Positions 1 through 20,171 of a DNA stretch of 64,000 nt are shown in pieces. Both the position numbers and the translations under genes were made by a program. Numbering within the stretch: position 1 is the stretch's first letter; each line of letters starts with the position of its first letter. The stretch covers positions 124,001 to 188,000 of the forward strand of contig JAYWIR010000006.1 of assembly GCA_036172245.1 (NCBI GenBank), given 5' to 3'. This DNA comes from Raillietiella orientalis. Taxonomy: Eukaryota. Below the pieces are notes generated by a model. It had not been told where the DNA came from, made no database searches, and saw only the letters and a list, made by a program, of their open reading frames with translations.

Positions 1-15
1 TTTACCAACTCGTGT

Positions 16-452
16 TCACAGGTCGTGGTCGAGGAAAACGTGGTCGATGCTGTCCTCCATTTCTGGGTCCCCCTCCATCAAGTTGCGCGCACGCACGTCG
101 GTGCACAGCTCGATCGTCGCGTTCTTCTGCGTGCAGCACGCACCTGAGAGCAGGCGGAGGTTAAAGTCCTCGGCTATCAGGTGGGCCTTGCGCACTCCTG
201 CATCAGTCAGCCAGTCGCGCTTTAGATACTGGAAGAACTGAGTTCTTTCCGCGTACACTTTGATGCCGCTCAGAGCGTACACGTTGGTAACGATGAGATC
301 TATCGTGTCGGACCAGCTGAGAATCATCTGTCCAACCCGACCGTTGTCATCGAAGCGCACGTTCCTCACGGAAGCATCGACGGCTGGCTTTAAAAAGAAC
401 GCGACACCGCAGTTGTTGCGGTTACCGCATCGCCAATACAACCGATCCCCGA
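16..452 (-). mobile_element. L1/Tx1-clade LINE ORF2 fragment, APE-type endonuclease domain
   Basis: Translation has APE motifs CGVAFF, TNVYA, (G>E)DFN and SIDHVFL; homologous to the EN fragment at 9850-10120. Confidence 0.85.
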
Positions 453-514
453 AAAACCAAGGACCAAAGCGACCCCCGAAAAAAGGCTAAAGCTGAAGTA
501 TCGGGTGTACCTAT

Positions 515-3208
515 ATGGAACTAGGAACTGGAAGTATGACGCTAAACTTGCTCGTAGAGGCCGCGGGACAAGGAGCGAACGTTAGGTCCGGCCATGGTCT
601 GAACTCCGGGATCCATGGTGCTACTAAACTAAAGGAACAAGAGGCAGCGCAAATGTCTGTCATTGTTTCAGGAGTGAAATGGACAGAAGAAGATGAGTCG
701 TTATACCATGAAGTCAAGAAACTCATGGAACAGACATACATGAATATCGACTCGAGGGCAGACGATTTAAACGAACATAGCGCCCTAATTACAGTAAAGT
801 TCTTGAAGAAATTGCCAGGAGGTGATAAGATCTGTCTTAAAAACCACGGACAGACTGCCTCAGAGTTGGAAGACTACATCAGGGACGTGTGTAAATATGC
901 TCTAGGAGATAAAAGGCTGATCCTAGACAAAAAGAAATTTATAAACACTCGTACGCAACAGAAACCGACAGAACCGTATTCAACACTCTTAAGTGAAATG
1001 CTTTGTCGGGAAAATTGTGATAGGTTTATGGACAGGATGGACGAAAGTTTGGAAGGGGGTTGTATCCTGTTCAAACAGACACTAGAAAGGAATCGCAATA
1101 GATACATGTCAAGTACAGAAACATGGACGTTCAGGCACGAGAATCTCTTTCAACGGAAAAACAGACGGGAAGGAGAAAGGAGGAAAATGGTACATATGCC
1201 AGAAACAAGTATGGTTGCAACACCTACGGAGAGGAAACCTTGTATGATATATGAGGCAACTGAGAAAAAGAAAATCAAGGATAGTAGGCCTATGGCCTAT
1301 AAAAGACTAGTGACAGTGGAAGGGCAGCTGCCTGTTATTGAAGAAACACTAAACCGTGCGACGGAAGACAGAATGACGAAGGAAGATATAACGTTCAACG
1401 GCAACGTAACGGCACAAGTAAGGGAGTTGATTAAGGAGGCAAGTCGGAATGTAGATAGTGAATCTGAAGTAACACAGCTGGATCGTTCTGTACTATATGG
1501 GACATTAAATTGCTTTTTACAAGAGAAAGATTGCCTTGAGTTCCTAAATAGGAAGAAAACTCCCTTAGAGTTGATATGCCAACAGACAATGAATTCAGTG
1601 GGGAGACGAGATGGACTAGTCATCAAAGGAAGAGGTGCCGAGGCTAGAGAGTACAACGATAAGAAGGATCTAGTCAGTAGAGCAGCAAAGATAGCACGTG
1701 CCATCAATTGGAAGGCAAAAAGGATAATCGGATTTTTTACTATAAGAGAGACCAATAGGGCGTGGAAGCGGGCAGTCGCACTACAGATCCTAAAGATATG
1801 GCAAGTTACAGAGTGTGCCAAGGCGGGGGGTAATTATCAAGATTTGTTCTTCCAGCCGACAGAGGGAGGTTCGGCAAAAAAGAAACAGCTAGTGTCCAAC
1901 ATGATCGAACTGGTCAAACTGTGGGCCAGTGTCAAAAAATGCAACGACATAGAAACCAACAGAGTCGAGGAAATGCTAGAAGCATCACACACAGGAAGGT
2001 TTGTGGAGAAGTTAGTAGTAAAAGAAGAGGCAGAGAATAGCAAACAGGCCTGTCAGAGTTTTATTAAGCTTATGCTATCAACCCATGAGGTTGCCTTCTG
2101 GCAGAAGAAAGTTTGTGTTTACTGTCTATTCCGGGAGCTAAATCCAGAAGCCCAGCTCAATGAGTGTGAAATAGAACAAATCGGGATTAACATAGATGGA
2201 TATGCCGCAAATATAGCTAGGAAGCATAACAAGGAACAACATGCTCTAAACGGAAACATTGATCGCGAGGGTGTTGTTAAAGATCTTAAAGAGAAGTACT
2301 GGGACAGCCCGGTAAACGGGTGGCATCGAATGTCAAGAGAACAGGCCAGATATCAACGTGCCTGTAGAGAAGCTGAAACGATCGCTGTGGTCATGGGAGA
2401 TCATATGAGAAGAGAGTACATTGTCAACAGCAGTACGGTCCACCAACAAATGTATCCTGTTGAGAAAATACGTACAGCCGAGGTCTTTGCAGTGGATGAA
2501 GAGGAATGTAAAGTATTCATTACTGCAGATTATTTGATGGATCATAACAAAAAATTGGTTGCTGAGGGTAAACCAATGGTGAGCAAGGAGGAGCTGGAAC
2601 GGCATTTGAGCATGGAAAAATACAAGATAGAAAGTAGAGATCGTGATAGTTTAATAAAAACCAACGCCTCGACTATAAAAGCACTGATTAAAGAGCGCAA
2701 TGGGCATAGGTTTAGTAAGTTGCGCAAGAAGCTGGAAGAACGTGCGCATTGGATAGGGGTAGGGCAGGTTACAACATTGGAACATGGGACTCTGTGTTTG
2801 AACAATCAAGGGAAGATGGTTAGAGTGGCGATATCAGGAGCAGATACAAGTGATATCATTATAAACGATGCTCGATCTCACAATATTTGGACTAAGTTGA
2901 GTGGCACACCGATGAAAGCAGGTGCAATCCTATCTGGAATGGCTGGAGAAAAACATGATTGGAGGACATTAGGATTGAAGGCCGCACTCTACGATATGCA
3001 AAAAGATGAAAGTTGGACAGAACCTGCGGGTTCAGACTATATCTTGAGCACTGGGGTAGACCGGCATTCAATAGTAATCAATCGTGTGGGGAGCTCCCCG
3101 TATAGTGCAATAGCATTAGACCTAGGGGCGATGTCAACTTACTTAGCCCGTAAGGGATGTATTCCGGTAAACGTAGGCACAGTGGAAAATCCGGAAATTA
3201 ACAACTAG
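515..3208 (+). CDS. Intact intronless 897-aa ORF, N-terminal part of a putative endogenous viral element (EVE1), family unassigned
   Basis: Long intronless A/G-rich ORF in a genome whose genes have many small introns; no TE or host domain recognised; flanked by LINE fragments; colinear homologue at 10765-12205. Confidence 0.6.
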   Translation: MELGTGSMTLNLLVEAAGQGANVRSGHGLNSGIHGATKLKEQEAAQMSVIVSGVKWTEEDESLYHEVKKLMEQTYMNIDSRADDLNEHSALITVKFLKKLPGGDKICLKNHGQTASELEDYIRDVCKYALGDKRLILDKKKFINTRTQQKPTEPYSTLLSEMLCRENCDRFMDRMDESLEGGCILFKQTLERNRNRYMSSTETWTFRHENLFQRKNRREGERRKMVHMPETSMVATPTERKPCMIYEATEKKKIKDSRPMAYKRLVTVEGQLPVIEETLNRATEDRMTKEDITFNGNVTAQVRELIKEASRNVDSESEVTQLDRSVLYGTLNCFLQEKDCLEFLNRKKTPLELICQQTMNSVGRRDGLVIKGRGAEAREYNDKKDLVSRAAKIARAINWKAKRIIGFFTIRETNRAWKRAVALQILKIWQVTECAKAGGNYQDLFFQPTEGGSAKKKQLVSNMIELVKLWASVKKCNDIETNRVEEMLEASHTGRFVEKLVVKEEAENSKQACQSFIKLMLSTHEVAFWQKKVCVYCLFRELNPEAQLNECEIEQIGINIDGYAANIARKHNKEQHALNGNIDREGVVKDLKEKYWDSPVNGWHRMSREQARYQRACREAETIAVVMGDHMRREYIVNSSTVHQQMYPVEKIRTAEVFAVDEEECKVFITADYLMDHNKKLVAEGKPMVSKEELERHLSMEKYKIESRDRDSLIKTNASTIKALIKERNGHRFSKLRKKLEERAHWIGVGQVTTLEHGTLCLNNQGKMVRVAISGADTSDIIINDARSHNIWTKLSGTPMKAGAILSGMAGEKHDWRTLGLKAALYDMQKDESWTEPAGSDYILSTGVDRHSIVINRVGSSPYSAIALDLGAMSTYLARKGCIPVNVGTVENPEINN

Positions 3209-4860
3209 TATTTAGAGGATACTAGCACTGCAATTATAGTGCTGGATGATAGGTCAGTGCTTACGCCAGTAACACTTGCCCTATGGATACTAGTCCACCT
3301 ACATTATCCTCTAATTGACACATATGACATTTACATCGTAGCTGTAGGAGGAATGAAAGACGGTGATGGATTTGAGGGAGAGGTGAAGAAGGAAGAAATC
3401 TTATACAGACGTACCTCTTCTCTAGTGGATATAGAGTCATGAGCAATAAACTTGGTGTTAGTGACCACAGATAAGGTCGGACACCTGAGAACGATCGCTG
3501 GGACAGATATTCCAATCACTGTGGGTGAACGATATCATAATGAGCTAGAGCCTACTATGGCATTTGACCCGCAACAGATGTTACGAAGGGCGTTAGATCC
3601 CGTTTATAGGTATAAGGGTAAATTGACAAACTTATTAGACATTTATCTGCGGCCGAGGATGGCCTCAAGGATGAACTGGGGAGAAATTGAACACTTGGCG
3701 GGAGTACTGACAGTTCGGTACATACCCCGTGAGGAGTTGGGAATCGATAAGGAAGGAAATTACGAGTATAGAACTATTGTGGATCAAGATGGCAAGAACA
3801 TCAAGGAAGTAGAGAATGAGACGAACTGCAGGCTCCACATACTGAAATATGCAGCATATGGACATGATGATAGTGTCAATGCTATTGACCAGGCCTTTGT
3901 CAGCAGGTCAACAGCAAAAAGGGCACCAGCTGTCATACTGGGCTGCTGGAACAATGTGACAGAACTAGCAGTCATGTGTGGACTAGCAGACTATATGACT
4001 TTTAATTCAGAGACGCATCAGACTGTCTGTAACTACCTGGATGTATCATCAGCTGATAAGGTATTCAGGACTCGTTACTTGAGACAGATAATAGAAGGGA
4101 AAGAGTCAACAGCAACGAACGATGAGCTGTCAACAGTTAGGAACAATGTAAATGCAGAGCACGGATGGGACTTGCTAGTGCATGCAGTAGAATGGGGGAC
4201 TACGACCCTGGAACAACTATTACAATATGTAGTTGGGGGGGAAGTGTGAGATGGCAATGGACAATGTGGAGACACCATGAACAGGTGGTCAGTTTGACCG
4301 GGATTAGTAGTCTAAGCCATCGAAGGGACAATATAACGTCGGGCACTATTACTCCCGCCTGTGAAGTGAAACTAGGATTGGGGGTGGAAGACTGGGATTA
4401 CCTCCGAGTCCATAAGAAGTCAGCGACGATAGAGGGTACGCACGATTGCTGCAAAGAATCGACAGTTATCGTGCCAGACATAAGATAACACGGATGAATA
4501 TCATCAGTCGGGCGGAGGATAAGAGGTGCGCTACTACGCTAGAATTAACGTGTCGGCGGAAGCTCACCTATGCAACAGGTTACTGTCAAAAGTATTGTGA
4601 CTCTGATAAGAAACCCATCACCTGGGGGGTAGGAGTGAGTCGAATATCTAGGAACTGGGAGGATCTGGTAATGGCTCAGACAGTTATAAACGTAAACCTA
4701 AGTGAACTACTCCAGAGACGAAACCTAAGTTGGGAACTGGTATACACAACAGGTGAAAGGTTAGCAGTCGCTAGCAACTATCAAGATGGAGTGTGGAAAC
4801 CTCTGGGTTTTCAATTAAGGCAGGTGAGGACCAGGGTGGATATGAAAGACAAGACGGAAG
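3209..4860 (+). pseudogene. Disrupted continuation of the EVE1 reading frame (original ORF about 1400+ codons)
   Basis: ORFs 3239-3442 and 3452-4249 are in the same frame as 515-3208, separated by single stops; then frameshifts (G run near 4234-4241 and near 4480) into ORFs 4165-4488 and 4446-; same composition until the LINE 3'UTR at about 4860. Confidence 0.65.
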
Positions 4861-5403
4861 GGGGAAGAAGGGTGGGGAAAAGCAGAAAAAAAAACAAAAA
4901 AAGAAAAACGCCTGGAGGAACAATGTTTTTTGGGAGGGGAAGGAAGGGAAGGGATCACGGTACGCCGTGGGAAGGCCTCTGCATCCGGTTTTGAATACAA
5001 GTGCTGGCAGAATTTTACTTAGTCGGTGCCAACGGGAAGCCTACTCTATGGAGATGACTGCCCAGTGGATGGCATTCCGACTCCTGCGGCCTCTTCTTGA
5101 CGCGGTCTACTTGTCCAAAATTCCGCGTAAGCAGTAGAGAACTGCAACACACGCAGTGCCTGGAAGGGAGTCTCGCATCAGGAGGAGACGAAAAAGGTTT
5201 TTAGGGTCGCCCGCCGGAACGTTTGGGATCGACGAGAGTCGACCCCACATCTGGCGGAGGGCAACGCACTCGATTATTAAGTGGGGGAAGGTCTCCCTTT
5301 CCCCACACTCTGCACAGTGGACATCCATACTCCCTGAAGTCCAGTGGAAGAGGTGTGCTCTGCAAAGGAGTCCCCAGTGGAGCACTAGCAGAGCCGTCTC
5401 TGG
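4861..5403 (-). mobile_element. LINE 3' end (copy A): zf-RVT C-terminus plus truncated 3'UTR fused to EVE1
   Basis: LVLHWGL...CAECGERETFPHLIIEC zinc motif, then GTGATCCCTTCCC and a pyrimidine tract as in the other 3'UTR copies. Confidence 0.85.
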
Positions 5404-8006
5404 GAAGCTCAAATGGCGGAAGTCACCGAGGGAGGACGGCCTGCCCACGGAGTTTTTTCAATGCTTCGCGGCGGAGCTTGCCCCCCTGGTGCAGCGGCTA
5501 ACGCTGCTGATCCGGGAGGCAGGCAACGTTCCCGCCTCCTTCCGATCGGCACGGATGCGTCTTCTCCCGAAGGGAGGAGACTCACGGAACCTCAGCAATT
5601 GGCGTCCGATCACCGTTTCAAACGCGGACGCCAAGCTGCTTGCGAAGCTATGGTCGGAACGAATAGGGCGGATGGCGCAAAGCTTCATCAGCCCGGAACA
5701 GACATACGCTGTTCCCGGGGGAAGCATGGACGCCAACCTGCTCTTCGCGAACACCTGGTTCGGGTTCCAGCGGTGTAGATTAAATGAAAAGAATAAGATC
5801 GGCACCCCGAGTTGCGGGACGTCCGCTGGTGGTTTGCGAGATGGTCGGGAGCTCGATGGGGCCCTCGCGGTCGCAGTCGATCTGCGAAAAGCATTTGACT
5901 GCGTTGACCAAGAGCTCCTGCTGGAGCTAATGGAGCGCCTGGGCTTCCCGGCCTCCTTATTAGCCTTTCTGCGCTCTTGCTTGCGCGACTCGCTGACCAA
6001 TATTTCTTTCAGAGGAAGAAACGTGTTCGGTGTGCCGGTGCGCCGCGGGATACGGCAAGGTGACAGCTTGAGCCCCTTGCTTTTCAGCACCTACTTCGAG
6101 CTGGTGCTGAGGGCATACAGGGAGACTCTTGGTCACCTGCCGCGCGTGTGCCCAGGTACACCGGCCGTGGCGTCTTATGCGGACGATCTTTTGCTGCTGC
6201 TCCCCATGTCCACCCCGGCGTCGGCGGTCGAAAACTTTTTCGAGCTGCTGCGTCGCGGGACAGGGCTGGAGGTGAACAGAGCGAAGTCGTCCGTGGTTGC
6301 AGCTGGTTCATCACGGGCAGGGCAGCCGGACTGGTTTAGCTTGAGGATCCCCACAGTACCGTACTTTAAGTACCTTGGTGTGCCGTTGGGAAACTATTCC
6401 CCTGCGAAAGCGTGGTCTAGCTGCCTCCAAAAGGCCGAGAGAGCGATCGGCCCGTTCCTGGATGGCAAGTTTTTTTGCCGGAACGGGCCGTGGTGTGGAA
6501 CACGTTCGTGGCCCCCCTTTTTCGCCCCTTGCTTTTTGTTTGCCCTCCACCCTGCGGTGTCAGAAAATGGACGAAGGACCTCCTCAGAATTGCCCTTTGG
6601 GGCAGAGGTAGGCCCCGAGTCCGTTTGAAGGACTTATGTGCCCCTGGTCGCGATGGAGGCCTCGGCCTCCTCACGCTGGAGCGGCTGGAACTGCAACTGC
6701 AGTTCAGGACTATAGCTCTAGTAGCGAAGCTATGGAGCACCAGCTGGTGCGAGCCTGCACGACGCCTGGTTCAGCGAGCTAGCGGCTGCGCGGGACTGTC
6801 TACCTTCCTAGCGCGCCGCAAACGCCGGTACCTGTTCCACTGCGGACTGGCACTTCGGCGAGTGGCGAAGCTGACCAGAACGAACACCTGGATCTCCTGT
6901 CGGCCCGCGAACAGTACTTCCTGGTTGCAGGAAAGCCTTCACACGTGGGCCCAGATCGAGGAAACGAGCCCGGAGTTGCGGCAGCGAATGCTGCTCTCCT
7001 ATCACAAGAGCCGCTCGCTGCAGGACATCATTGTGCAGCCCACCTTGAGCGCATGGGCTGAGAGGACCTCCCTTGCCACGGCTCCGTTCCACCTTAGGGA
7101 GCACCTGGGCAGTAGCCATCCGGCGAAATGGGAAGTCCGGTGTAGTATCTCTAGAAGAGAGAGAGAGCAAGGTGGTTGGACCACGGGCCAGTTGAGAGAC
7201 GCTGCGACCCCAAGTGCCCCACCAAAGGGACTATTGCACTGGGGCGATCTGCTGAGCATCCCCATGGATGTACTCGAGTGGCCCCCGGTGCTGAAGACTA
7301 CCCGGGCCCTCCCCCCGAAGTGGCAGGAGTCGGCGTTCCTGGTGTTGCACTGGGGACTCCCCAGCAACGCCCGCCGTTCGCACTGGATGAGGGGGGCTGT
7401 GGACCCAAATTGTGTCAGGTGCGGGGAACGGGAAACCCTCCCGCACCTGCTTCTTGACTGTGTTGCCCTCCGGCCTCTGTGGTTGCGTTTCGCAACGGCC
7501 CTAGGAGCACCCACGATCAACCCTAGAGACGTTCTGACGCGCCTCTTTGTGCGTGACGCCCTTCGGCCTGCCGCAGCCCTTGCAGCCCTCTGCTGCCTAC
7601 GAGGTATTGTGGCGGCCTGGAGCACCGCCACTGGTGGACTGAACGACAGGGACATCATCTGCTCCGCCCTGCGTTTCCTAAGGACGGCAGCCAGATGGTC
7701 CCATTTGGGGCATATGCGGACCGAACTTGCCGGCATCCTGGAAAGGATATAGAGGACGACTCCAGCGGAATGTGATCCCTTCCCCAACTCCTCCCTGCTG
7801 CTTTTGTAAATAGTGTTTTCTTTTTGTTTTTATTTGTCCTTTTCCCCCCCGCTGCCGAGTCGAACTCGCCAGCCTGCGTGCTAGCTACTCGGCAATTTCA
7901 GACTCTTTATTAGAACATTTTTTAGGACGCTGTAGGGGCAATAGCCCTACACTTGCTTGTTTGTTTTTACTAAAAAATAAACGCCCCGGCGCACCCGGGT
8001 GTAAAA
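5404..8006 (+). mobile_element. 5'-truncated L1/Tx1-clade LINE (copy B): reverse transcriptase, zf-RVT and complete 3'UTR, one frameshift near 6470
   Basis: RT motifs SPREDG, LLPKGGD..NWRPI, DLRKAFD, GIRQGDSLSPLLF, YADD, KYLG; CVRCGERETLPHLLLDC; stop at 7752; flanked by the 16-bp direct repeat GCAGAGCCGTCTCTGG (5388-5403 and 8007-8022). Confidence 0.95.
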
Positions 8007-8022
8007 GCAGAGCCGTCTCTGG

Positions 8023-8431
8023 AAGTGGAATGCATCGAGGAGAGGACATAAAAGCCGGAATACCATTCATTGGGCAGTCCTCTCTATTGAGAAGGCATGC
8101 CGATGGCGCCTGTTATGGACAATGCCGGCACTTGCCCGCATCCGAAACCGGATGCAGAGGACTCCTCCCGGAGACCAATGATTCCATCCCTTCCCTCCCC
8201 ACCCAATAAAACTTTTTCCCCCCGGCGTTTTTCTTTTTTTTTTTTTGGTTTTCCCGCTCCCTTCGCCCGTGGAGTACCTCACCGACCTGTGGGTTGGTAA
8301 GGACAAGTGCAAAACTCTGTCAGAACCATGTGTTCTGACTGAAAAACACACAAAAACAAACAAACCAGACCTTATTGTAAAGTTTATGCTGAACTTTAAT
8401 AATAAAAGCCCCGGCTACTCCGGGTGAAAAA
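8023..8431 (+). mobile_element. LINE 3' terminus (copy C)
   Basis: Homologous to the reverse complement of about 4861-5115; ends AATAAAAGCCCCGGCTACTCCGGGTGAAAAA. Confidence 0.8.
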
Positions 8432-9360
8432 TTAAAGGAAGAACCCTCCTCGCTGCTGCGCTGGCCCTCCTAAGGGGAGATTCGGACTGCGATGTTGCGG
8501 CGAGGTGGTAGGTGGACATAAAAATCTACGAAAGGGAGAAGATAGGAGTGTGGAAGACGGGCCAGCTGACTGAAGCTGCGATCCCGAGTACACATCCCCG
8601 TGGACTTCTGCGCTGGGGCGCGCTGCTCGATGTTCCGGTGGAACATCTGAAGTGGCCCCCGGTGCTAATGAACACCTCCACCCTCCCCTTGAAATGGCAG
8701 GAGTCCGCGCTACTGATGCTGCACTGGGGACTCCCGTGCAACTCCCGCCGCCACCATCGGACCTGGTGAACCCAAATTTTGTTAGGTGTGAGGAACGGAA
8801 GTCCCTCCCCCACCTCCTTGGGGATTGTGTTGCCCTTCGGCCCCTTTGGTTCCGCTTTGCCGCGGCCAGCAGAATCCCCTGCGGCAACCCCAGGGACGCT
8901 TTGAAAGTCCTCCTCGTTGCAGACGCCCTCCGGCCTGTGGCCTCCTTGGCAGCCCTGTGCTGCGTACGCGGGATCCTCACCGCTTGGCGCAAGGCAACGG
9001 AATGACTCCGCGATAAGGGTGCTATTCAGTGCGCCTCCTGATTCCAGGAGAGGGCGACGCGATGACCCCACCTGGATCCAGAAATACAGGAAGAGCAATG
9101 CAGAGAGAGCTTGCCGGCATCCTCCTAAGGATGCAACGGCGCCAGCAGCAACAGTGATCCCTTCTCGCACTCTTCCAAGTTTTTTTTTTTTTTTGTTTGT
9201 TCCCTCTCCTCCTTGCTGCCGCGGTGGACCGTACCGGTCTGCGAACCAGTGACCCAGCAGGTTCAGTTCATCTAGAGCGTGGCTAGACCACTGGTTCAGG
9301 CACAGATTCTCCAAATGTTTTATTCGAAAGAATAAACGCCCCGGTGCACCCGGGTTAGAA
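8432..9360 (+). mobile_element. LINE 3' fragment (copy D): zf-RVT region plus 3'UTR
   Basis: WKTGQL..LLRWG..WQESALLMLHWGLP and RCEERKSLPHLLGDC closely match copy B; ends AATAAACGCCCCGGTGCACCCGGG. Confidence 0.88.
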
Positions 9361-9848
9361 TCGACAGAACAGGTGTTCGTGGAGGAACGCTGGTCCGGCA
9401 ATTCCTGCATCCAAGGAGGCTGGTGCACGAGGTGTGAGCGTGCGTGCACACCTCGTTCACCAGCCTCTCCCAGGATGGCAGTGAACATTGAAGTCCCCGC
9501 CAACGAGGTGAGTCATGTTAAGGGCGGAGTCGGTGAGCCAGCGGCTTTGCAGGCTATCGAGAAACTAGAGTGCTCCCGCGTGACACCCTCCGCCACTCGG
9601 CGCGTACACGTTCGTAACGACAAGGTCGATGGATTCGGACTTGAAAACAAATTGGCCCAGTCGATCTTCCCCGTGAAAACGGATTGTTTGTTCGGATATT
9701 CTTGTTTGTTCTCTCTCCATCCCCCTCCGCTGCCGAAGAGAGTCTCGTCAGTCTGCGTACGGGCCAGCAGGTCCACTGTTTGATTGGCCGTACTGGAGCC
9801 TCCTATCAGGTGGAATTTTTAAATGAATGCACCGAATTGACCGGGTGC
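9361..9848 (+). mobile_element. Divergent LINE 3' fragment (copy E)
   Basis: Pyrimidine tract, GCTGCCG...GTCTGCGTAC...CCAGCAG motif and CCGGGTG terminus shared with the other 3'UTRs. Confidence 0.6.
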
Positions 9849-10764
9849 TAACGTCGAAACGGAGGTTCCGCACCGCCCCATGCGGAGTTGCATTCCTATC
9901 CTGGACAAGGAACGCAACTCCGCAAGTGTTTGCAGAGTCTTGCCGCCAGTGAGGCGTCCCGCCTGCGCGCTCTTCCAGATCGGTCACCTACTGTTCGGTG
10001 ATGTTGTGTATCTCCTGCAGCAGCACCAGATCGAATTCGCGCAAGACGTTGGCTACCAACCTCCTCTTCTCAGCGTCGCGCACCCCGTTGACGTTCCAAC
10101 AGGCTACGCGAACGCGACGAGAGGATGCGAGTTCGCGCATTGCTGCTGCGGATATGGCCGCGCTTTCCTCGACCCGTTCGGCGAGGGGTCAGCCGGGAGC
10201 ACGAGACAGTGGGGAGCCGAATCGCTCCCGTCTTCTGACATGCAGCACGCGGCTAGCTCTTGGGTGTCGAGGAGCATTGTCTTGATCTCCGAAAAGCATC
10301 GGCCTCGTGACTGGAAGGCTTTGGCTTGCGCGCAGACCCAGGTTGCCCCAGGACTTGGAGCACTTTCGAGCTGCCATAGGACTCCATCTCGGAGTCTGAA
10401 TGCTGTGCGTGAGACAGGTGTTTCGCCTGTCGGTTTTTTTGCTAGTCCAGCTTTCAGCTGCCACCACAAAAACCGTAGCAGTCCTTGGAGGTTCCTTGGT
10501 TGGACACGAGAGCCTCTAGTGTCTTCTGGATTTTTGCTAGTGGCTCCCGTTTCTTGATCGCGGCCAGGATCAGCCTCGCCACATATGCCTGTTGCGCCTA
10601 CTTACCGGGAGGTGCGGACAAAGTGGCGGGATTCACAGGAGTCCCTCGAGGTTTCGCAGCCTTCCCTGTGGCTTGACTCGCCGTGGACGGCTTACCTATC
10701 GCGGACTGAGGGGTGCGCGACCCCTCGAAAGCGGCACCGGGCGATTTGCTGCGATTTGAGAGTT
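9849..10764 (-). mobile_element. LINE ORF1 C-terminal region and start of ORF2 endonuclease
   Basis: Minus-strand translation RVACWNVNGVRD..FDLVLLQEIH..CGVAFLV (APE N-terminal motifs). Confidence 0.85.
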
Positions 10765-12205
10765 GCATGAGATGGATGTTCTTCCTCAATCGAAGGCTTC
10801 CTTGAACCCGTATTGGATCAAGAAGCTTAAGGGAATCTGCGCCCCCTGGGTAGGCGAAATAGCAGAGGCTGAGCTAGCACATCTGAGCTCAGCGCCTAAA
10901 GTTTCGGGTTTCGAAGTTGCCTCCCGAGAATTCCGAAAAGTAATTCTAGACAAATGAGGTCACCAACTTTGGTGTGCTCGAGTTCTAAACGCTTTAGTTC
11001 CGGTCTTGAAGCACGCTAGGCTCGAGTTGGCGGTTGGTGAACCGAACCCCTTAAATGATCCGGAGGTTAGTGAAGGTAAGAGAGGGCGGGCTGATGAGGG
11101 CCTTATAACCCTTCTGAAGCCCCCCTCTGCAGGGTGCACCACTGATATTGCCAAGGATGTAGACCCCGTCTGAGTCACCCAGGGCAGTGAAGGTGACTTT
11201 CAATCTGCCGGAGGAGCCGGCAAGGTATTTTGGGAAGTAGATGAGGCGGAGAGGACCCGTTAGGAGCTTCCATTAACATAAGGAAGGGTAACATAGACAG
11301 CACCTCCAATTTGTACACGGCTTTCGAGGACCACCTCACCACCCGCTGTGCGGTGCTTAGCTTGGATAAGGTCTCCCAGGTTGGACATCTGACAAAAGGG
11401 ATCCCCGACTCATTGTGAGTCGGGTTCAACTCCCGGGTAAGGGAAGGTGCCACCTACTCGAGGAAGACATGCAGCACTGCGGAGGCCGTGATCATCGAGG
11501 CCTCGAGCAGGTAGACAGCTGTGCGGGCACTCAGCCGACTGCCGGGCAGACTACGCGCCCAGACAAACCCAAGGAGTCCCTGTGGCAGAGGGCAACGAAG
11601 TTCGCCCGGGCGATAGGGGGTGACTTCAAACGGGTCTACTCCTTTATAAATAAGGGTCAGTCGGAGGGACGTTTCGTGATAGCCGTGCGCCGTGCACTAC
11701 TGGCCCATGGACAACGTCGCCGTCTGAGGAGAGCAGATGGCTGTCAGACGTAACGGACTCCCGCTCGTAGCACCGGAAAGGTTATCGTCTCTCGGTTGCT
11801 ATCGACCATTATCGCGTGGGCGAAACGATCATCGCCAAAGGATCTGGGAACCCAGGGGAGTACTGGGGGGGAGGGCGAGGGCGGCCCTGTTCCTGACGAT
11901 ATACCTGGCTCCCGGTTTCTTTGTTTATCTCCTCACCATTGTGGCTCCGTTACTGTGAACTCACCCAGTTATGCCACTGGTGTGTGTGTCAGCGGACTCT
12001 GGGCCAGCTAAATCCGACTCCCCTTTCTATTCCCCCAGTAGGAGTTCCCTCTTACCAAAACTACACAGACGTGAGCAGCGCCATCCTCTATAGGGAGTGT
12101 GTAGTTGGAGTATAGAGGACGGAGATCGGTATTTGCATTGAACCACCGGCATTCCGATTCTGAGCAGAGACAGACGCGCATGGTTCTGCAGCCTTCACCT
12201 GGATG
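10765..12205 (+). pseudogene. Degraded putative endogenous viral element (EVE2), homologous to the N-terminal half of EVE1
   Basis: Colinear peptide matches to the 897-aa ORF (IKKLKGIC/LKKLPGGDKIC; RKVILDK/KRLILDK; SLWQRATKFARAI..KRVYSF/DLVSRAAKIARAI..KRIIGF; IVSRLLSTIIAWA/LVSNMIELVKLWA); several stops and frameshifts. Confidence 0.65.
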
Positions 12206-13523
12206 TCTCCCGGAAGCTGCGTCGCGCAGGACTTCTTCACGCAGTGCGGCGCGGCTTTTTGCCATTCTGGGCGGATGCTTGAAGTTTTGTGTCCCCTGAA
12301 ACGCCCGCGAGATCTTTTTTGGGCGTGCCACTTTGCGGCGGAGCGGCGTTTCCACCAACAACGCGGGAGAAGTTTTCGGCGCGTGCGGCGAAGACGCGGG
12401 GAGATTGCTAGCCCACCGTTTCCGCTTAAGCTCGACGCACTCATTGATCGAGTGGTCAAGCATCTTACAATAGTGGCAACTGCACGTTGGGCACTTCCGG
12501 GGACGGTGGCACTCTTTTCCGCAGTTGCCGCATGCCGATCGCTGGCCGACAAACCGAAGAAACACGACCGCGTCACCAAGCTGGAGCTGCGAAGGCAGTA
12601 GCCTCCGATCCAGCATGGTAACGCGCGGTGTGGCGAGTTTGCTATGGGGGGACGGGACTCTTTTTATCGGGTTCGGGCGCCTCCACAACGCGTACACTGT
12701 GGCGAACGCCTCCAGCGGGCGTTATCAGTTCGCGGTCCGATATCCCTTGCCGGATGTTGGAGTTGGACCACGAAGGACAGGTTCATGCCTGCGGGAACGA
12801 CCTCCTTTCCCCGGATCTTCAGCGGGGTTCGGAGCAGACGCTGGAAGAGGGCTGCGTCTTTGCAGTGAACCTCCCAGTCTCCGGGCACGCTCACCGACTT
12901 TATGGCCAGGAGGTCGTTCTCGCTTGTCATCCGGTTGCGCCGGGGCGTTTTATTCTTTCGAACAAACATTTACAAGATCAGTGGCTGGACCCATGGTCCA
13001 GCCACGCCTTAGATATTGGCAGTCTGCCGGGTCACCGGTGCGCAGACCGGTGCGGTCCACCTTGGCAGCAGAGGAGAGGAGGCAAAAACAAAAAAAAAAA
13101 AAATAACTGGGGAGGGCACGGGAAGGGATCACAGTCTGCTGGCTTACGAGGTCGTGCTCGCGGATACCGACGCATTTCAGTTCGCTCCATAGCTGGTCGC
13201 CCGCCCTGTGGGAAAACAAGGCACTTACCTTGTAGCAGAGCGCGAACTTGTAGCCTTGAGCTACGTACGCTCGCAGCTTTGCCTCGTCGGGGGTCGCGCC
13301 GTTTGCCACCGCGGCCTTAGCAACGGCGGCAAAACTTCTCTCCGGTGGCTAGGCACAATTGGCAGAGTCCTGCATTCATTCCGAAAAAGGTCCTGCTAGG
13401 CAGGCTGCTTCCTCCACCTCTACCCCCATCATGTGCTGCGTTTTCGCCATTTTCTTCCGAAATAGGCACCACACACACAAAAAAGGAACAGCAGAAAAAT
13501 TCCCTAGACGGAGCGCAACAATG
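12206..13523 (-). mobile_element. LINE 5'UTR and ORF1 with zinc knuckles, interrupted by a solo 3'UTR (copy F, about 12925-13140)
   Basis: LLPSQLQLG..RFVGQRSACGNCGKECHRPRKC..CHYCKMLDHSINEC (two CCHC knuckles, Tx1/L1 ORF1 type); 12925-13140 is homologous to 9150-9356 in reverse. Confidence 0.85.
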
Positions 13524-14165
13524 CACATCCGAGCAGTAGGAAGGAGGTGGCTGCACGGGATATGGATGCAAATTGCTACAGGTGAGGCGAGGAGACCCTG
13601 CTGCACCTTCTGCTGGATTGAGCCGGACGAGTCAGAAGCCGGCTTCTGACTCCTTCGGGATCAATTCTCGACGATCCTGGAGATCCCGGGTGCGACCCCA
13701 AAGACATTGTACGAAACCTCTTCATGCGTCTCGTTCTTCCGCCAGCAGCGTCCCTAGCATTTCCCAGCTGCGAACGCGGAATTGTGGCAGTCGGGAAGAA
13801 GAGGCCGGAATGACAGGGGCGCCATTCATTGGGCAAAAAAAATTTTAAACACCGCCTCCAGATGGCCCCAGCTGGGAGAAAAAACAACAGATATAGTCAG
13901 CATCCCGCACAGGATGCAAAGGACGACCCGCGGCGAAATGTGGTCCCTTCCCTGGCAGCCCCCCTTCCCAGAAAACTCTTCCTCCCTTTGTTTATTTTTC
14001 GGTTTTTCCTTTCTCGTCGCTGCGGAAACGCACCCCGCCGGTTTCCGTACCGGTGGTGACAAGTTCTTCGCATGTGCTAGAACGAAGTGCCATACTATTA
14101 TGTTGTAATTGACTCGACTTTTATTGTTTTAACAGTATATGCCGCATCAAACCTGGGTGAAAAAT
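13524..14165 (+). mobile_element. LINE 3' fragment (copy G)
   Basis: Degenerate zf-RVT (LHGIWMQ..CCTFC), GTGGTCCCTTCCC after the coding end, conserved hairpin at about 14037-14056, CTGGGTGAAAAA terminus. Confidence 0.7.
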
Positions 14166-14520
14166 TGCGCGGGACCCGAGTGCCCTGGTCGTCCAGCAAG
14201 CTGGCTGACCCGGATTCCAGGGTTGCCTCTCAGCTCCCACTCTATACACTGCAAGCCGCTGCACTTTGGGTGTTCTGCTATAACGGCGGACACGCGGGTA
14301 CTCCTGCTCGTTACCAACACCGCCGAAGCAGGCAAGTAGGCGGTCCATGGGGAACTGCTGGCGGAACTTTCGGACAGAGCGCTTGAAGCTGTCCCAATTT
14401 TCGGGTTCCTGCAGCCTGAAAACCTGCAGGACCTCGCGGAGGTGTTCCGCGGCTCCCGGGAGGTTCATACAGTCCCTGGAAGACTCCGCACATCCGATGA
14501 AGAACCCCGGTCGCGCGGCC
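14166..14520 (-). mobile_element. LINE ORF2 EN-RT linker fragment
   Basis: RPGFF..WDSFKRSVRKF resembles the conserved post-EN linker of L1/Tx1 ORF2; GC-rich like the other LINE pieces. Confidence 0.6.
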
Positions 14521-14862
14521 AAACTTCCACAAAAATGCAGGGTACTGTGGATCCTTCTCTACCGACGAAAGCCTATACTACGAAAAACTAATATGGTTGC
14601 GTGCTCACATATCCACAGCCGTTCCTAAACTAGATCCTTACGCTCTGGTAAACCCGAAGAATGGATAATCAGCACCACATAAAGTAATGGAATAAAAGAG
14701 AGGGTTTCCCTCCTCTCAATTATTCACTACACTGGCGCAGGCAGCGTAGAGGCGAAGCATTCCATTGAGTAAGCTATATGCGAGATATACATAGCGATAG
14801 CACGACTGCTCATACGTAGCTGTAAGAAATTACCGAATAGTGAGATGTAGCTTTTTCTTGCA
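14521..14862 (+). pseudogene. Possible 3' end of a partitivirus-like RdRp segment (EVE3a)
   Basis: Disrupted frame NFHKNAGYCGSFSTDESLYYEKLIWLRAH..KRGFPSSQLF followed by a UTR sharing an ATTACC-N-GTGAGAYG motif with the 3'UTR of the adjacent capsid block; no catalytic motif present. Confidence 0.35.
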
Positions 14863-14885
14863 GGTAGAAAATACAGTTATCCAAA

Positions 14886-15772
14886 ATGGAAACTGCCGCA
14901 GCAACCAGCACACTAAAACGCCTACGACCCGACGGTACAGCGGATAAGACGGATGACCCGGTTGTCATTAGTTAGTACAACCGCCAGAGTCACCTCGCAC
15001 AGCGCCCCCAAGCCCATGCACGGAACTGACTTTACGGAGCGAGCTGCCCGAAACGTCACCGGTCCTCACCCATACGTCAACCGCAGGAAATAATACATCT
15101 CTGAGCAGACGCGAAGTCATTCTTCGCTGAATTGTATGATACTCTCACCGGCGTCATTTACGAAGGGGACGGTATCATTAGCGACCTCATAGATACGGGA
15201 ACTTTCCTCCAAGTGAGCCGCGAACTATACATCATGCGACTACAATTAGTTTACCAAAAGTTCACCGGACTTAGACTCCTAGGTAAGATCCCCTTCTAAC
15301 CGAAGTTCAAGATGCCTATGTGCATGGCCATAGTGATAAACAGTTATGGTGTGACAACCATCAAGGCCGCACAGTAGTGTACCCCAAACCGGAGAGTGAC
15401 CTCCAAAACAAGGATGAAGAAAGTGATCTTCATCCCACAGAAAGAGACACCGTGGGATTCTCGCGACTAATCCGATCGCTCGAAGGTCGGAATGTCATTC
15501 GAACAGGAATATTGAGTTCCTCGATGAATGGCACTCCTGCAGGGCTAATCGGAGCGCTCCAGATGGGACAGCTCTCTACACCCGCGAACATCGCAAGTTC
15601 GACGGTGATAGCAGCTTGTACCACTGCAAACTTTGCCCCAATAGACGCATTCCTAAGTGCGCTAATGGTCAACCAGCAGAGCGCAGTCCTCTTCGGCGGT
15701 GCTATTCAATGCATTAGCTCCATGATCAGTGGAGTCGGAGCCCTACGATCGGACTTCATTATGAACGCGTGA
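14886..15772 (+). pseudogene. Partitivirus-like capsid protein EVE (EVE3b), about 295 codons with stops and frameshifts
   Basis: Reconstructed FAELYDTL..FLQVSRELYIMRLQLVYQKFTGLRLLGKIPF..MPMCMAIVINSYG..VYPKPE..FSRLIRSLEGRNVIRTGILSS..GT..PIDAFLSA..GVGALRSDF matches my recollection of arthropod partiti-like capsids; intronless. Confidence 0.65.
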
Positions 15773-15899
15773 ATAAACCAGTGCATTCATCAACACTCAG
15801 TGATTACCTGAGTTGTGAGACGGCAAGTGAAGGAAATTTCTTCGCGACAATACGTTCCAAGTGGCCATCTCCCACACACTTTCGTACACGCTTCGGCTG

Positions 15900-18800
15900 T
15901 GCATATACTAAAGTTCTACGCAAAGAAAACGTGAACTTTGCAAAACACGCTTTCGCGTATTCTTATTCATCCAACAACCTAATCCCATCAAAGTCCTCAG
16001 AATCAAAATGTGGCAAAGTGGATATCCACGATATCTTCACAAGGGTGTTCGACAATCAGCATATAACGCTCTGCCCGGCATTTATACATCGAGTGCGGCT
16101 CCTGCAGTATAAACCTGCAACTGTACCTCTAAGTGAATGCCCTGCGCCTTTGATGGTCTCATGTTGGCATTCCTCTGAGCAAGCACTCGGACGGTTCCCT
16201 ACCAATGGTTAATTCGTATCCATGAAGACGCGATTCGTGCTTTTCATTCAGATTTGTTTGCGGACTCTACGCCTTCCATCAGAATCTTGCTCCGCTTCTT
16301 GGAACGCACCTGCCCGTGCTTGAGCCGTCGCTACACAATGCAGTGCCGTCTTTCAGCATGTCACAATCACAAGAGACCTAACTTTCACACATTTTCCATG
16401 GTGCTTCAACAAATACACCCTAATAATACTTACCTTTTTGTTACTGGTGAAAAGTTTAGAACAAAGCAACATACGACAAACTCCCGTCGGAAAAACTCAA
16501 ATCGGACCCGCAAGCAGATTGCAGCACGAATTGCTCACCCCTCTCTCGAAACCACAACCGCTTCCACCACCTTGAGCACGAGATACACTGGGAAGCTCAG
16601 TACACAAAAAACTAAAAATCACTTTCAGAGCACGAAAACGAACACAATACATCCCGGTAAACGAATCCAAAGTAAAGAAAATACATCCTCTAAAGATAAA
16701 AGTACAAAAAAGCATAGAAGGCATTGTGTGACTGCTTGGCTTGAATTTACTTACGGACGACATAAAGAATGTCTGTCACTTCAACCATAAATACAATGGC
16801 TGTTAAACACTATGACATACCACATACCACGTTTGACCAAGTGAAAGTCTGACACAACAATGTTGAGCACAGATAGACTGGGAATTTCTTACATTAACAT
16901 TTGTCCTACACATAATTAAATGTGAACTTTGCTTACTTAATGCTAGAACTTATGATGGGATCATTTCATTCATGTTTGCATTTTTGAGTCACTAGTAACA
17001 GGGGTAACAATGCATTTCATAATGAACATATTTTTGAAACAAGTTTGCTTTGAAACACATTAATGCCTGTTTCAATTTCAAATCATGTTCTTTGTTATTC
17101 TTGCATCTTCCATACAAAGAAAACAGAAAACACCTATGGGAAGAAAATCAAGGTCAACAACAAAACATTTCGCATTGACAACCACTTTCTGATAATATTG
17201 ACTATAGAAGCATATCCGAATTCTGCATTGGATGCCCACTGCTCACATCAATGAACACAAAATTACAAGCTGTAATAAAGAACTTTCTAATGTGAACAAT
17301 AGTTGAACAGTTCACAGGCTGCATAAACAACTGTATTTGACTAGGAAGCCCATATACCAAATTAAATACAACATGTGGCTAACTGAATGAATAAATATGC
17401 CCACAATGGAAAAGGTCAACATGTACCTTGTATTCCAAATGGTGTAAATTCCAACAAAGTAAATCAGATGTAAATTTCAGATTCACATATGGAAGCAGCA
17501 TCACAACATCCCATTCATAACAATTGCATTAACAGAAACATAACAGTCTATTCAACAAGACTTCACATGAGAACTTTTCTAAGAATGAGAAACCTTTAAC
17601 AATATATAGCCTTAGCAGTCATGATTCTGTACAACACAGCTTTTAATGAACTTTGCTCATCACAACAGGAGCAATAGCACATGAAAACTGAAAAACAACA
17701 AATGACTAATATGTCTGAGGGAGATGAGTCTAGCCAACACCTGGTGATGTGCTGTAGGTCACTCTAGTGGCTAACACCAACAGACTGGCAACAACAGAGT
17801 ATTTGTGTCTCCAAATACTCGAAAGGCACTAGGAAGGTCACATAGGGTCTTACATATTCAGAGGTAGCAACTTCTTCAACTTCAAGAGCCTTAGCAACCT
17901 CTTTGTGGCAACACATTCAATCTTATTTAACGGAACTCAGAATGGCTATGGAAACATTCCTCCTCAAAGTCAAAGAGTACACCTCACATTCAACACATGT
18001 TCAACAAGACCACCAGCCAACCCACTGTAAATTATATGATTTTCAATCGACTTCTTGATAAAAAAAACACAAACTTAATCTTCAAGATCTGAAATTCACG
18101 AATGTTAACCTACAAAATTGCCTCCATCATTAAAAACTGATTCAGATTTGAATGCAAAAACAATTTCGCACACATAATCATAGAGACTGTCTGAAACCCT
18201 CAAGTGGATTCATTTAGTTGCTTTTGTTCTCGATAGAAAAAACAATATATACTGAAGCTTCAAATCAGAAGGCTATCTAATGCATATGACATTCAACGAA
18301 AACTCAGTTAGTTTGTTAGAATTCAAAGTATATTGCCATGCAGCTGCTTCTTCTTAAAAGCGGTTTTACTATGTGTCAGCAAATGACCTCTGTGTTTGCA
18401 AAAATACAAATTCAAATACTGTACACATTAACCCAATGATTTTACAAAATTGCCAACAATACAGTAATTAAAAAATGATAGCCATAAGAGTGAATTCTGG
18501 AATACAAAACATATTTCATAACCAGATGTTTCCAAAAATCACAATGGCATTCGATGTTGTACAGCTATTGATGAAACAAAAGTCTCAGTTCTTGAAATCA
18601 AACATTCAGTGCATTTGCATTGCCAAAAACATGAACTTCAACAATGTAGATCAGGTGTAAATTTCAGGTTCATATATGAGAAGCATCACAACATACCATT
18701 CAAAACAAGTGCATTGACAGAAATACAAACTCATAGTCATCTGCTCAATGAGATTTCATGATAGAACATTTCTGAGAATGGGAAACCTTAAAAAACATAG

Positions 18801-19658
18801 CCCCCATAGTGTAATGAAACACCTTTGTTACCGACTACACTAAGCAGCACCACAGAAGACTGACTGTGAACTCTTGATTGATTGATTTTCTTTACTTTCC
18901 AAATAACAGGATGCATAAAATGTATATGTATTCTTAAATAAAAGCATATATCACATTCACTAGCTCACTTCCAGCATCAGTTGATGGCACTGATATCAAA
19001 AGCCCGCACTATCTCTGTTGACCTCTAATGAGACAAACCAAAAATCTCGGATGCAAACTGCCAGATCAACAACAAACCTCAGATGTTTCCATTTGTGCAG
19101 CCAAACTTTTGATTAGACATAAGCTCACTACACATTGTCTAGTCTAGTATACCTCCCAACATACGATGTCGAAGCAAACTATTTACGAAAGCTCTTGTGG
19201 AAAAGGAATGGCGGCACTGTTGGTAACATTGAGCCAATAATTACCAAACATGAATTTTGGATTGTTCCACATCCTTTGTCAGTCTCACCTCTTCCAACAG
19301 GCAAATGAAATTTCGGAAAACCCCATGCTAAGTTACTCCTCACTACAACATCCACTACAATACCAACATTTCCAATGTTATTAACGCATACATTAGGGAA
19401 GCATTTGCAAATCTTTCTTTGTATTAATGGATAGTGACTTCCATAATTTGCCAGCAAACTTCTGAAATGCTCATTTTGAGAATAATAAAGGGTGGTTTTT
19501 CAATAACAAGTCACATTCCACGGATAAGTGGGGTAAACTTACGTACAGTACGATCCAATTGATCAGAACACTCGGAGTCTTTACACAATGGTGGGAACAT
19601 AAAACAAATAAAGTGTTTGCATACTAGGACCTACGTTGCTGACAATAAACACGGAAGG
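15900..19658 (-). ncRNA. Candidate multi-exon spliced non-coding transcript (lncRNA, snoRNA host or piRNA-cluster leader); 3' end undefined
   Basis: Pyrimidine start CCTTCC at 19658; GT-AG introns 19634-19579, 19542-19462, 19391-19343, 19288-19217 and further donors; first ATG in joined exons gives only a 6-codon ORF. Confidence 0.45.
17463..18802. repeat. Diverged direct duplication of about 150 bp (17463-17611 and 18650-18802)
   Basis: TCAGRTGTAAATTTCAGRTTCAYAT..GCATCACAACAT..GAGAAACCTT/GGGAAACCTT..ATAGCC present twice. Confidence 0.8.
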
Positions 19659-20171
19659 CCACGACGGGGCGGATTGCTTTCCAAATCGGATTCTTAACTA
19701 CTACGAATAATTAATTAGGCCCCTACAAATCAATACGTTGCACAATCTGAGAACAGACGCGTGCATCATGGAAATCCCAAAAGAGCATTCTCACTTCAAT
19801 CAGTTCGCTTGGCGGACCTTCGTTCGTCTTTCCCTTGCCCAAGCTCCGCACCAGCCACGAATAGGAAGACCAAGAAGATGCACCCTACCGCTCCCTTACT
19901 TATTTTACGCACCTTTCCCAAGGATGCCAAATCCTCAAAAACGGGAATCGAATGCGAAAGCATGCACACCACTTTAATTCAAAGATTTTAATTATTTTCC
20001 TGAAAATCTTTAAAAACAGAATTCACCAGAAAAACGAATTCAATCACAATTCTAAAGAAATAAGGAACTTGAGGGAAACGCAGGAGCATGAACAGACTGA
20101 CTCCGACTTTTACTGAAATAGGGTTTAGGAATCTGCTGACCACCACGAAAACCAAATGGTGTCATGAAGAC

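Follow-up and report, generated by a model that had tools for sequence, protein, structure and literature searches.

Toti-like viral fossils and a decayed gene copy in a LINE-rich locus of Raillietiella orientalis

The assembled genome of Raillietiella orientalis (GCA_036172245.1) holds, at positions 124,001 to 188,000 of the forward strand of contig JAYWIR010000006.1, a stretch of 64,000 nucleotides (hereafter the window) whose first 16 kb are crowded with pieces of long interspersed nuclear elements (LINEs) assigned to the L1 clade. Among these pieces lie three blocks of coding-derived sequence, numbered 1 to 3 from left to right (Table 1). Blocks 1 and 2 derive from the first open reading frame (ORF1), which encodes the capsid polyprotein, of toti-like double-stranded RNA (dsRNA) viruses, and block 3 from a gene for a protein of 295 amino acids (aa). 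An original prediction made from the letters of the sequence had placed here three intronless coding blocks unrelated to transposable elements, all on the plus strand and all resembling endogenous viral elements (EVEs). The coding origin and the common strand of the three stand, but block 3 has its limits at 14886-15772 and not at 14521-15860, and the viral label holds for blocks 1 and 2 as toti-like ORF1 copies and not for block 3, which has a single relative, no family and no viral match.

The G+C content lies between 44 and 59% across the first 16 kb, against 37-39% at 16-22 kb, where AT-rich DNA follows to the right. Between 1 and 21 kb there are 53 stop-to-stop frames of at least 100 codons; a Pfam scan of the 20 longest frames recognized a family in two of them, RVT_1 (5138-6628, plus strand) and zf-RVT (6421-7752, plus strand), and in none of the frames of blocks 1, 2 and 3. 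A further 83 frames of at least 75 codons added a weak zf-RVT match at 5110-5457 on the minus strand and a piggyBac-type piece at 20700-20933. The whole window gave no match to Rfam, no tandem repeat was found at 1-22 kb, and a tblastx comparison of 1-16.9 kb with the remainder of the window produced no match.

Table 1. Features of the LINE-rich array and of the region to its right (positions of the window)
Feature	Position	Strand	Basis
LINE fragment of an APE-type (apurinic/apyrimidinic) endonuclease, lacking about the first 50 residues and running off the window start	1-450 (ORF 19-486)	-	homology to a second copy
Gap of about 60 nt between LINE piece and ORF1 start, probably viral 5' untranslated region (5'UTR)	455-514	+	LINE homology stops at about 450; viral origin presumed
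Block 1, copy of ORF1 (capsid polyprotein)	515-~4885	+	outside profile, tblastn, exhaustive protein search
C-terminal tail of LINE ORF2 followed by some 130 nt of its 3'UTR, broken off within that UTR where block 1 ends	4875-5415	-	tblastn, inverted match
5'-truncated L1-clade LINE: reverse transcriptase (RT), zf-RVT tail, 3'UTR with AATAAA and hairpin	5420-8006	+	Pfam, PDB
Two 5'-truncated LINE tails, 3' ends at about 8433 and about 9363	8007-9363	+	tblastn 8500-9074 (E 1e-51); hairpins 8409-8424, 9339-9354
LINE endonuclease with N-terminus, split by a short plus-strand LINE 3' end (about 9700-9854)	9469-10128	-	Exo_endo_phos
Block 2, heavily decayed remnant of the 5' part of another toti-like ORF1	10765-12205 (limits of the original prediction)	+	viral core 11415-11855 only
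ORF encoding two CX2CX4HX4C knuckles, of LINE ORF1 or gag-like type, right of block 2	12011-12721	-	knuckles read by eye
LINE 3'UTR and 3' end	12925-13350	-	inverted matches to 9141-9364 and 7972-8001
LINE C-terminal tail and 3' end	13562-14166	+	tblastn 13562-13916 (E 1e-12); 3'-end motif
Block 3, pseudogene covering the full length of a 295-aa protein without family	14886-15772	+	P0046 alignment, tblastn
Putative first exon of the original prediction	19540-19658	-	donor-like TACGTAAGT site at about 19540 only

Block 1 opens with an unbroken frame of 903 codons (497-3205, encoding the protein P0001), a length for which a hand estimate from base composition gives a chance of about 1e-27. An exhaustive search of 1.84 billion cluster representatives with P0001 returned 42 proteins at E ≤ 1e-3, of which ten pass ≤ 1e-10, whereas no protein passes ≤ 1e-30; the best relative (E 1.1e-24) is 30% identical, and most of the relatives are 1400-1700 aa long. 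No Pfam family was found in the 22 of these 42 proteins that were scanned, word-indexed protein searches with P0001, at lengths near its own and longer, gave no relative, the protein atlas gave no usable match, and phmmer against PDB gave just two weak, irrelevant matches. A profile built from P0001 and 17 relatives (profile A1) found one chain in PDB, subunit A of the capsid of Omono River virus AK4 (9thi_A, E 9.6e-7), a weak but specific link over about 70 residues, drawn by sequence profile alone and with no fold comparison.

Viral contigs supply the genomic setting of this family. A pattern scan of IMG/VR yielded 55 candidate stretches, among which 6 loci were confirmed as encoding relatives; in all five full contigs (6.7-8.0 kb) an ORF2 of 932-972 aa overlaps the ORF1, which is 1366-1715 aa long, and each of these five ORF1s (L001-L005) matches the window between 1289 and 4243 (tblastn, best 7e-48). 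ORF2 encodes an RdRP_4 polymerase in the three that were scanned, and neither of the two ORF1s scanned carries a Pfam family. We then compared block 1 with a profile of 1457 positions that holds no sequence from the window (29 sequences: 24 representatives of at least 900 aa and the five IMG/VR ORF1s). This outside profile matches block 1 at 965-4243 with an independent E-value (iE) of 5e-155 and at 4401-4895 with an iE of 5e-11, reaching position 1353 of 1457, and the start methionine of the family (M7, invariant in the alignment) falls on the ATG at 515. Block 1 spans about 90% of ORF1; the last 100 or so profile positions are missing, as is the whole of ORF2 with its RNA-dependent RNA polymerase (RdRp), which is absent from the entire window as judged from five viral ORF2 queries (none matching at E ≤ 1e-3) and an RdRp hidden Markov model (best iE 0.45).

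From these matches we conclude that block 1 is a genuine EVE, a copy of ORF1 of a toti-like dsRNA virus of the type of Omono River virus and infectious myonecrosis virus (IMNV). Because of the span of the profile and the aligned start methionine, it is a DNA copy of the viral plus strand that begins within about 60 nt of the start of ORF1, and since the nearest of 1.84 billion representatives is only about 30% identical, the donor virus belongs to an unsampled lineage. The copy is broken: the frame at 497-4246 is interrupted by a TAG at 3206 and a TGA at 3440, after which homology moves to the frame of 4416-4991, so that at least one frameshift lies between 4244 and 4400. Over 4.4 kb, the visible decay thus comes to two stops and one or more frameshifts.

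Block 2 is recognizable by its core. The outside profile matches 11526-11831 on the plus strand (iE 3.3e-10, positions 224-327 of 1457, in the 5' part of ORF1), and residues 328-488 of P0001 align to 11415-11855 at 24.5% identity; among 59 queries (45 proteins and 14 ORFs from the IMG/VR loci), only P0001 and its best relative, P0004, match 11415-11855. A cluster of ATG codons at 10769-10781, followed by a protein-like frame, would fit the ORF1 start of block 2. All frames between 10.6 and 12.3 kb are full of stops, and the longest open frame in the block is at most 127 codons. The alignments indicate that block 2 is a viral-derived piece of ORF1 from the same broad lineage as block 1. In view of the identity of about 25% and the very different degree of decay, the two blocks are separate captures, block 2 probably being the older, and both are endogenous fossils, since each is broken and has L1-clade LINE pieces on its flanks. 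Segmental duplication was also considered as the source of the pair and rejected: under neutral decay, an identity of 24.5% is incompatible with a frame still open over 903 codons, and the two blocks do not share their junctions.

The main LINE of the array lies on the plus strand and not on the minus strand, with its RT at 5138-6625 and its tail extending to 7749. The RT matches RVT_1 at E 2.6e-21 and the tail zf-RVT at 8e-5 (23.7 bits, under the cut-off of 27.5); the closest solved relative of the RT is human LINE-1 ORF2p (5e-30), R2 reaching only 6e-16. An APE-type endonuclease, an L1-like RT and a C-terminal zinc-binding tail together mark the flanking elements, on sequence grounds, as L1-clade LINEs; the assignment stops at the clade, above the level of the Tx1 and L1 subclades. 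The endonuclease is best preserved ~640 nt to the left of block 2, where 9988-10128 (minus strand) matches Exo_endo_phos (E 8.8e-6, 26.1 bits, cut-off 24.5) and the translation of the piece contains WNVNG...LVLLQEIH...GVAFLV. The fragment at the left edge of the window (19-486, minus strand), which has its 5' side turned toward the 5' end of block 1, has itself no direct match in Pfam or PDB and an AlphaFold2 (AF2) model of pLDDT 33; it is identified as LINE because it is homologous to this second endonuclease copy, at 9963-9841 and 9696-9469 on the same strand.

The piece at the right end of block 1 is matched by the tail of the plus-strand LINE (aa 300-432) at 5409-5011 (tblastn, E 6e-26), the weak zf-RVT match falling at the same place, and its first part (4875-4996) is inverted relative to 8140-8261. 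Two other interpretations of this junction were discarded. The A-rich tract at 4885-4912 might pass for a viral poly(A) tail, but what it matches is the T-rich tract of a LINE 3'UTR, read as reverse complement; twin priming, considered for the inverted tail, fails on a protein identity of about 45% to the adjoining plus-strand tail, which makes it a different element.

Five copies of a LINE 3'-end motif (AATAAA, a CCCCGG...CCGGG hairpin and a few A) occur at 7970-8008, 8395-8433, 9325-9363, 9816-9854 and 14128-14166, all on the plus strand, bearing out the five plus-strand LINE 3' ends of the original prediction. The hairpin core was observed three times against 0.06 expected, and a looser pattern, CCGGGTGWAAA, showed no excess over chance. 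One further 3' end lies on the minus strand at about 12928-12957. The knuckle-bearing ORF right of block 2 has no Pfam match even at E ≤ 10 and no second copy in the window, and for the minus-strand frame at 14124-14558, left of block 3, neither a family nor a solved structure nor another LINE piece gave a match. The proposal that each block is fused directly to a minus-strand LINE piece is accordingly borne out in part: it is true of block 1 on both sides, it would apply to block 2 at its right end, if the knuckle ORF there derives from a LINE, and not at its left, where the endonuclease stands off by the distance given above, and it is not borne out for either neighbor of block 3.

Block 3, to judge from its alignment, is a complete but dead copy of a gene for a 295-aa protein. 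It runs from an ATG to a TGA (15770-15772) that overlaps an AATAAA, and within its 0.9 kb the reading frame is closed in phase four times (at 14973, 15027, 15102 and 15297, each time by a stop codon) and changes once, at about 15360-15375. Its 161-codon frame at 15287-15769 has a sole relative, P0046 (295 aa, E 1e-32), among the proteins of 283-2000 aa in a library of 5.8 billion, shorter proteins not having been searched; P0046 is one sequence found on 7 contigs, all of at most 1196 nt. When P0046 is searched back against the window with tblastn, two aligned pieces, each 49% identical, together cover it from residue 6 to the C-terminus, with a joint E of 9e-70. P0046 found only noise in Pfam (0.037) and no solved relative in PDB (best E 0.81), and its single-sequence AF2 model (pLDDT 33) is unusable. 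Matches of the block 3 ORF to clusters of ABC-2 transporters in the protein atlas, all scoring below 0.9, were treated as noise.

The odds are near even between a viral block 3 and a copy of a lineage-restricted host gene, that is, a retrocopy or a decayed single-exon copy, in which case the locus would hold two EVEs and not three. Scans of IMG/VR with the block 3 ORF and with P0046, and one scan of JGI metagenomes with P0046, revealed no relative, comparison of P0046 with toti-like ORF1 (hhalign) gave a probability of 0.2, that is, no relation, and these blanks, with those in Pfam and PDB, speak for the host, as do the extent of the copy from methionine to stop, the AATAAA at the stop and a pyrimidine tract with CAG about 25 nt before the ATG. 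Against the host stands the single cluster found among proteins of 283-2000 aa in the 5.8 billion, where a conserved host gene should show many orthologues; the short contigs of P0046 suit a small viral segment and a short mRNA equally. To the right of the block, at 15718-16787 on the plus strand, two frames of 164 and 203 codons lie in A/C-rich sequence and have low-complexity translations, no family and no relatives within the window; these long frames are possibly due to chance, as G makes up just 18% of this strand and T a fairly modest 25%.

How the viral copies entered the chromosome can be approached from their ends. Classical products of target-primed reverse transcription (TPRT) are poly(A)-tailed, flanked by a target-site duplication, complete at the 3' end and truncated at the 5' end. 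Mammalian integrations of bornavirus N mRNA, which are L1-mediated, likewise carry poly(A) tails and target-site duplications; they resemble the present locus in that complementary DNA (cDNA) of a non-retroviral RNA virus is presumed to have been made by a LINE reverse transcriptase. Blocks 1 and 3 differ from them: neither carries its own poly(A) tail (in block 3 the AATAAA is not followed by an A-tract), and neither has a shared flanking word of 8 nt or more that could be a target-site duplication. Block 2 has no poly(A) tail of its own either, and its sole flanking repeat is a 9-mer, GCAGCCTTC, at 10656-10664 and 12188-12196, close to the right limit assigned to the block; about 0.3 such matches are expected by chance around the block (hand estimate), and the pair offers no more than a hint of a target-site duplication. 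Block 1, opening at the ORF1 start codon and ending at position 1353 of 1457, short of ORF2, is the opposite of a classical TPRT copy, and block 2, whose recognized part maps to positions 224-327, would follow the same pattern.

It is plausible from these sequences that, as originally proposed, the locus was fed by a non-LTR reverse transcriptase, LTR standing for long terminal repeat. A LINE reverse transcriptase would make cDNA of a non-polyadenylated viral RNA, beginning through template switching or internal priming and not through ordinary poly(A)-primed TPRT; we infer this because both toti-like blocks keep their 5' side and lose their 3' side, with neither a poly(A) tail nor a convincing target-site duplication. 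Later LINE insertions would have continued in the region and may have cut the ends of the blocks. The LINE piece at 4875-5415 is cut within its own 3'UTR, which is not an outcome of ordinary TPRT. One reading takes the order at 1-5415 (LINE antisense, virus sense, LINE antisense) as a single cDNA, made while the enzyme jumped from a LINE RNA to the 3' end of the viral minus strand and on to a LINE RNA. Such a jump would account for the start of block 1 at the 5' end of the virus, for its plus sense and for its place beside a LINE of opposite sense, and might do the same for block 2. Random joining or later insertions would explain the same order as well. No description of such opposite-sense LINE-EVE junctions turned up in the literature searched, which is no claim that they are absent from print.

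We give a probability of roughly 0.55 both to the view that this metazoan genome has a graveyard of LINEs in the first 16 kb of the window, with at least two separate toti-like captures and one copy of a 295-aa gene, and to our default reading of its contents as inert fossils in a LINE sink. The blocks would most likely be neutral fossils, kept in an insertion-tolerant, repeat-rich region, and any small-RNA output of the locus would be a by-product. Several points weigh against this. The neutrality of the blocks is itself assumed, and the 903-codon open stretch of block 1 could reflect youth or selection. The route of capture is deduced from junctions that later LINE insertions or deletions could also yield. 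Two toti-like captures within 11 kb, with a third foreign block beside them, are more clustering than random landing would suggest if EVEs are rare; this clustering fits a trap of the PIWI-interacting RNA (piRNA) cluster kind and an insertion-tolerant junk sink alike. Finally, when the three blocks are counted together with the 3'-intact LINE insertions, 8 of 9 units lie on the plus strand (two-sided 0.04), as would be expected of a uni-strand cluster.

Among arthropods, toti-like integrations have been reported in Aedes (PMC6580184), in four or five ixodid tick genomes, the text and the legend of Figure 14 of that report naming different sets (PMC10675110), and in planthoppers (PMC10636211). 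The blocks described here are of the same kind, namely fragmentary, degraded DNA copies of ORF1 or ORF2 in repeat-rich DNA, and the locus is in this respect an ordinary EVE locus of a known viral-fossil type. Block 1 differs in its unusual length (about 4.4 kb, about 90% of ORF1) and in keeping a 903-codon open stretch. Set beside Omono River virus and IMNV-like viruses, with which the relatives of block 1 share the layout of ORF1 and ORF2 in 6.7-8.0 kb, the window is without ORF2 or RdRp and its copy is broken, and the tie to Omono River virus itself is a distant one, through the single 70-residue stretch at E 9.6e-7.

In its most ambitious form, the reading of the original prediction places the region at 1-16 kb within a uni-strand piRNA cluster. 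Its promoter would lie near 19.7 kb and drive minus-strand transcription of a precursor antisense to the three blocks and to the five plus-strand LINE insertions, which would yield heritable piRNAs against viruses and LINEs. We consider such a cluster doubtful, if a serious contender. Dense in transposable element fragments and holding at least two independent viral captures, the region has the composition that would be expected, and the order of its units recalls Aedes aegypti cells, where EVEs lie in unidirectional piRNA clusters, co-oriented with LTR elements (Whitfield et al., 10.1101/127498). In those clusters too, several viral fragments stand among retrotransposon fragments and the EVEs share one orientation. 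The retrotransposon partners there are LTR elements (Ty3/gypsy, Pao-Bel) oriented as the EVEs are, and piRNAs from the clusters were sequenced. At the present locus L1-clade LINEs take the place of the LTR elements, and those pieces that touch viral sequence run opposite to it.

A closer parallel comes from the tick Ixodes scapularis, in which, according to Russo et al. (2019, PMC6580184), viral integrations prefer piRNA clusters and non-LTR elements, L1 included, are enriched beside them; one hotspot scaffold there bears integrations from three viral groups. The only dsRNA-derived integration that the same study attributes to this tick is partiti-like and not toti-like. Because this case is published, an EVE locus associated with non-LTR elements is not new in kind, and the novelty that the original prediction had seen in a non-LTR in place of an LTR setting is weakened.

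The strand evidence for a cluster is ambiguous. The co-orientation of the three blocks has a two-sided chance of 0.25, and at least four further LINE fragments lie on the minus strand (1-450, 4875-5415, 9469-10128 and 12925-13350); once they are counted the plus-strand bias vanishes, and in a minus-strand precursor they would be sense. LINE orientation is mixed, with five 3'-intact insertions on the plus strand against one 3' end and at least four fragments on the minus strand. The spliced minus-strand transcript that was to start at 19658 cannot be read from the DNA: its one visible trace is the donor-like hexamer TACGTAAGT, and such motifs occur at chance frequency (10 donor-like 9-mers in the window, 10.6 expected from shuffled sequence). 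A uni-strand, spliced, minus-strand piRNA precursor running through all three blocks is thus possible but unsupported.

Two features lie near the supposed promoter. In the AT-rich stretch between block 3 and this position, 17428-17606 and 18615-18799 form a direct repeat of 160-180 nt, about 76% identical, which may be an element resembling a short interspersed nuclear element (SINE) or a miniature inverted-repeat transposable element (MITE). Just to the right, the piggyBac-type piece at 20700-20933 (plus strand) is a transposase fragment (DDE_Tnp_1_7, E 1.6e-12).

The full chain of events, in which an L1-clade reverse transcriptase, by jumping onto viral minus-strand 3' ends, built a functioning uni-strand piRNA cluster whose minus-strand precursor would yield antisense piRNAs against an unsampled toti-like lineage, strikes us as improbable by a wide margin. 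Still harder to sustain is the proposal that the 903-codon frame (497-3205) is a host gene co-opted from a viral capsid gene, as reported for toti-like EVEs of planthoppers (PMC10636211). The frame is intact from the conserved start methionine through more than half of the capsid region, and the planthopper precedent is in print. Yet it runs on into homologous sequence with two stops and a frameshift, so that it ends inside the capsid domain; an absence of lesions over 2.7 kb has a chance of about 0.12 at 3-4 lesions per 4.4 kb (hand estimate), hence nothing unusual at the local lesion density; and no promoter, intron or expression lends it support. That exogenous virus reads were misjoined to LINE-rich host sequence during assembly is scarcely credible, given the premature stops and frameshift of block 1 and its lack of an RdRp, the direct passage of both its ends into LINE sequence, and a decay of block 2 far beyond that of any live virus.

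Farther along the window, a few features stand apart from the array. An unbroken frame of 387 codons at 36041-37201 (plus strand) encodes a HEXIM domain (E 1.6e-31) and is apparently an intronless host HEXIM gene, which marks the host as a metazoan. Upstream of it, a winged helix-turn-helix match (HTH_69, E 4e-8) at 33983-34297 is followed at 34401-35327 by a protein-like frame of 309 codons without Pfam family, both on the plus strand, and the two may belong to one transposon or gene. G+C-rich islands (57-62%) at 26000-30000 and 42000-46000 contain many long frames on both strands, with no Pfam match and no likeness to the array of LINEs and EVEs, and their translations look like those of non-coding GC-rich sequence. 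A strong skew of T over A (-0.25) marks 40-44 kb.

With inert fossils in a LINE sink as our preferred reading, the locus bears on the biology of EVEs in three ways. Block 1 is a long and fairly fresh fossil, and it records a contact between host and virus that lies outside current viromes. Its junctions with LINEs of opposite sense, with no poly(A) tail belonging to the block and no clear target-site duplication, offer a concrete case for how RNA of a non-polyadenylated dsRNA virus becomes DNA. Finally, with two separate toti-like captures within 11 kb, the locus provides a natural test case for small-RNA work on whether LINE-rich EVE hotspots act as sources of piRNAs beyond mosquitoes and ticks.

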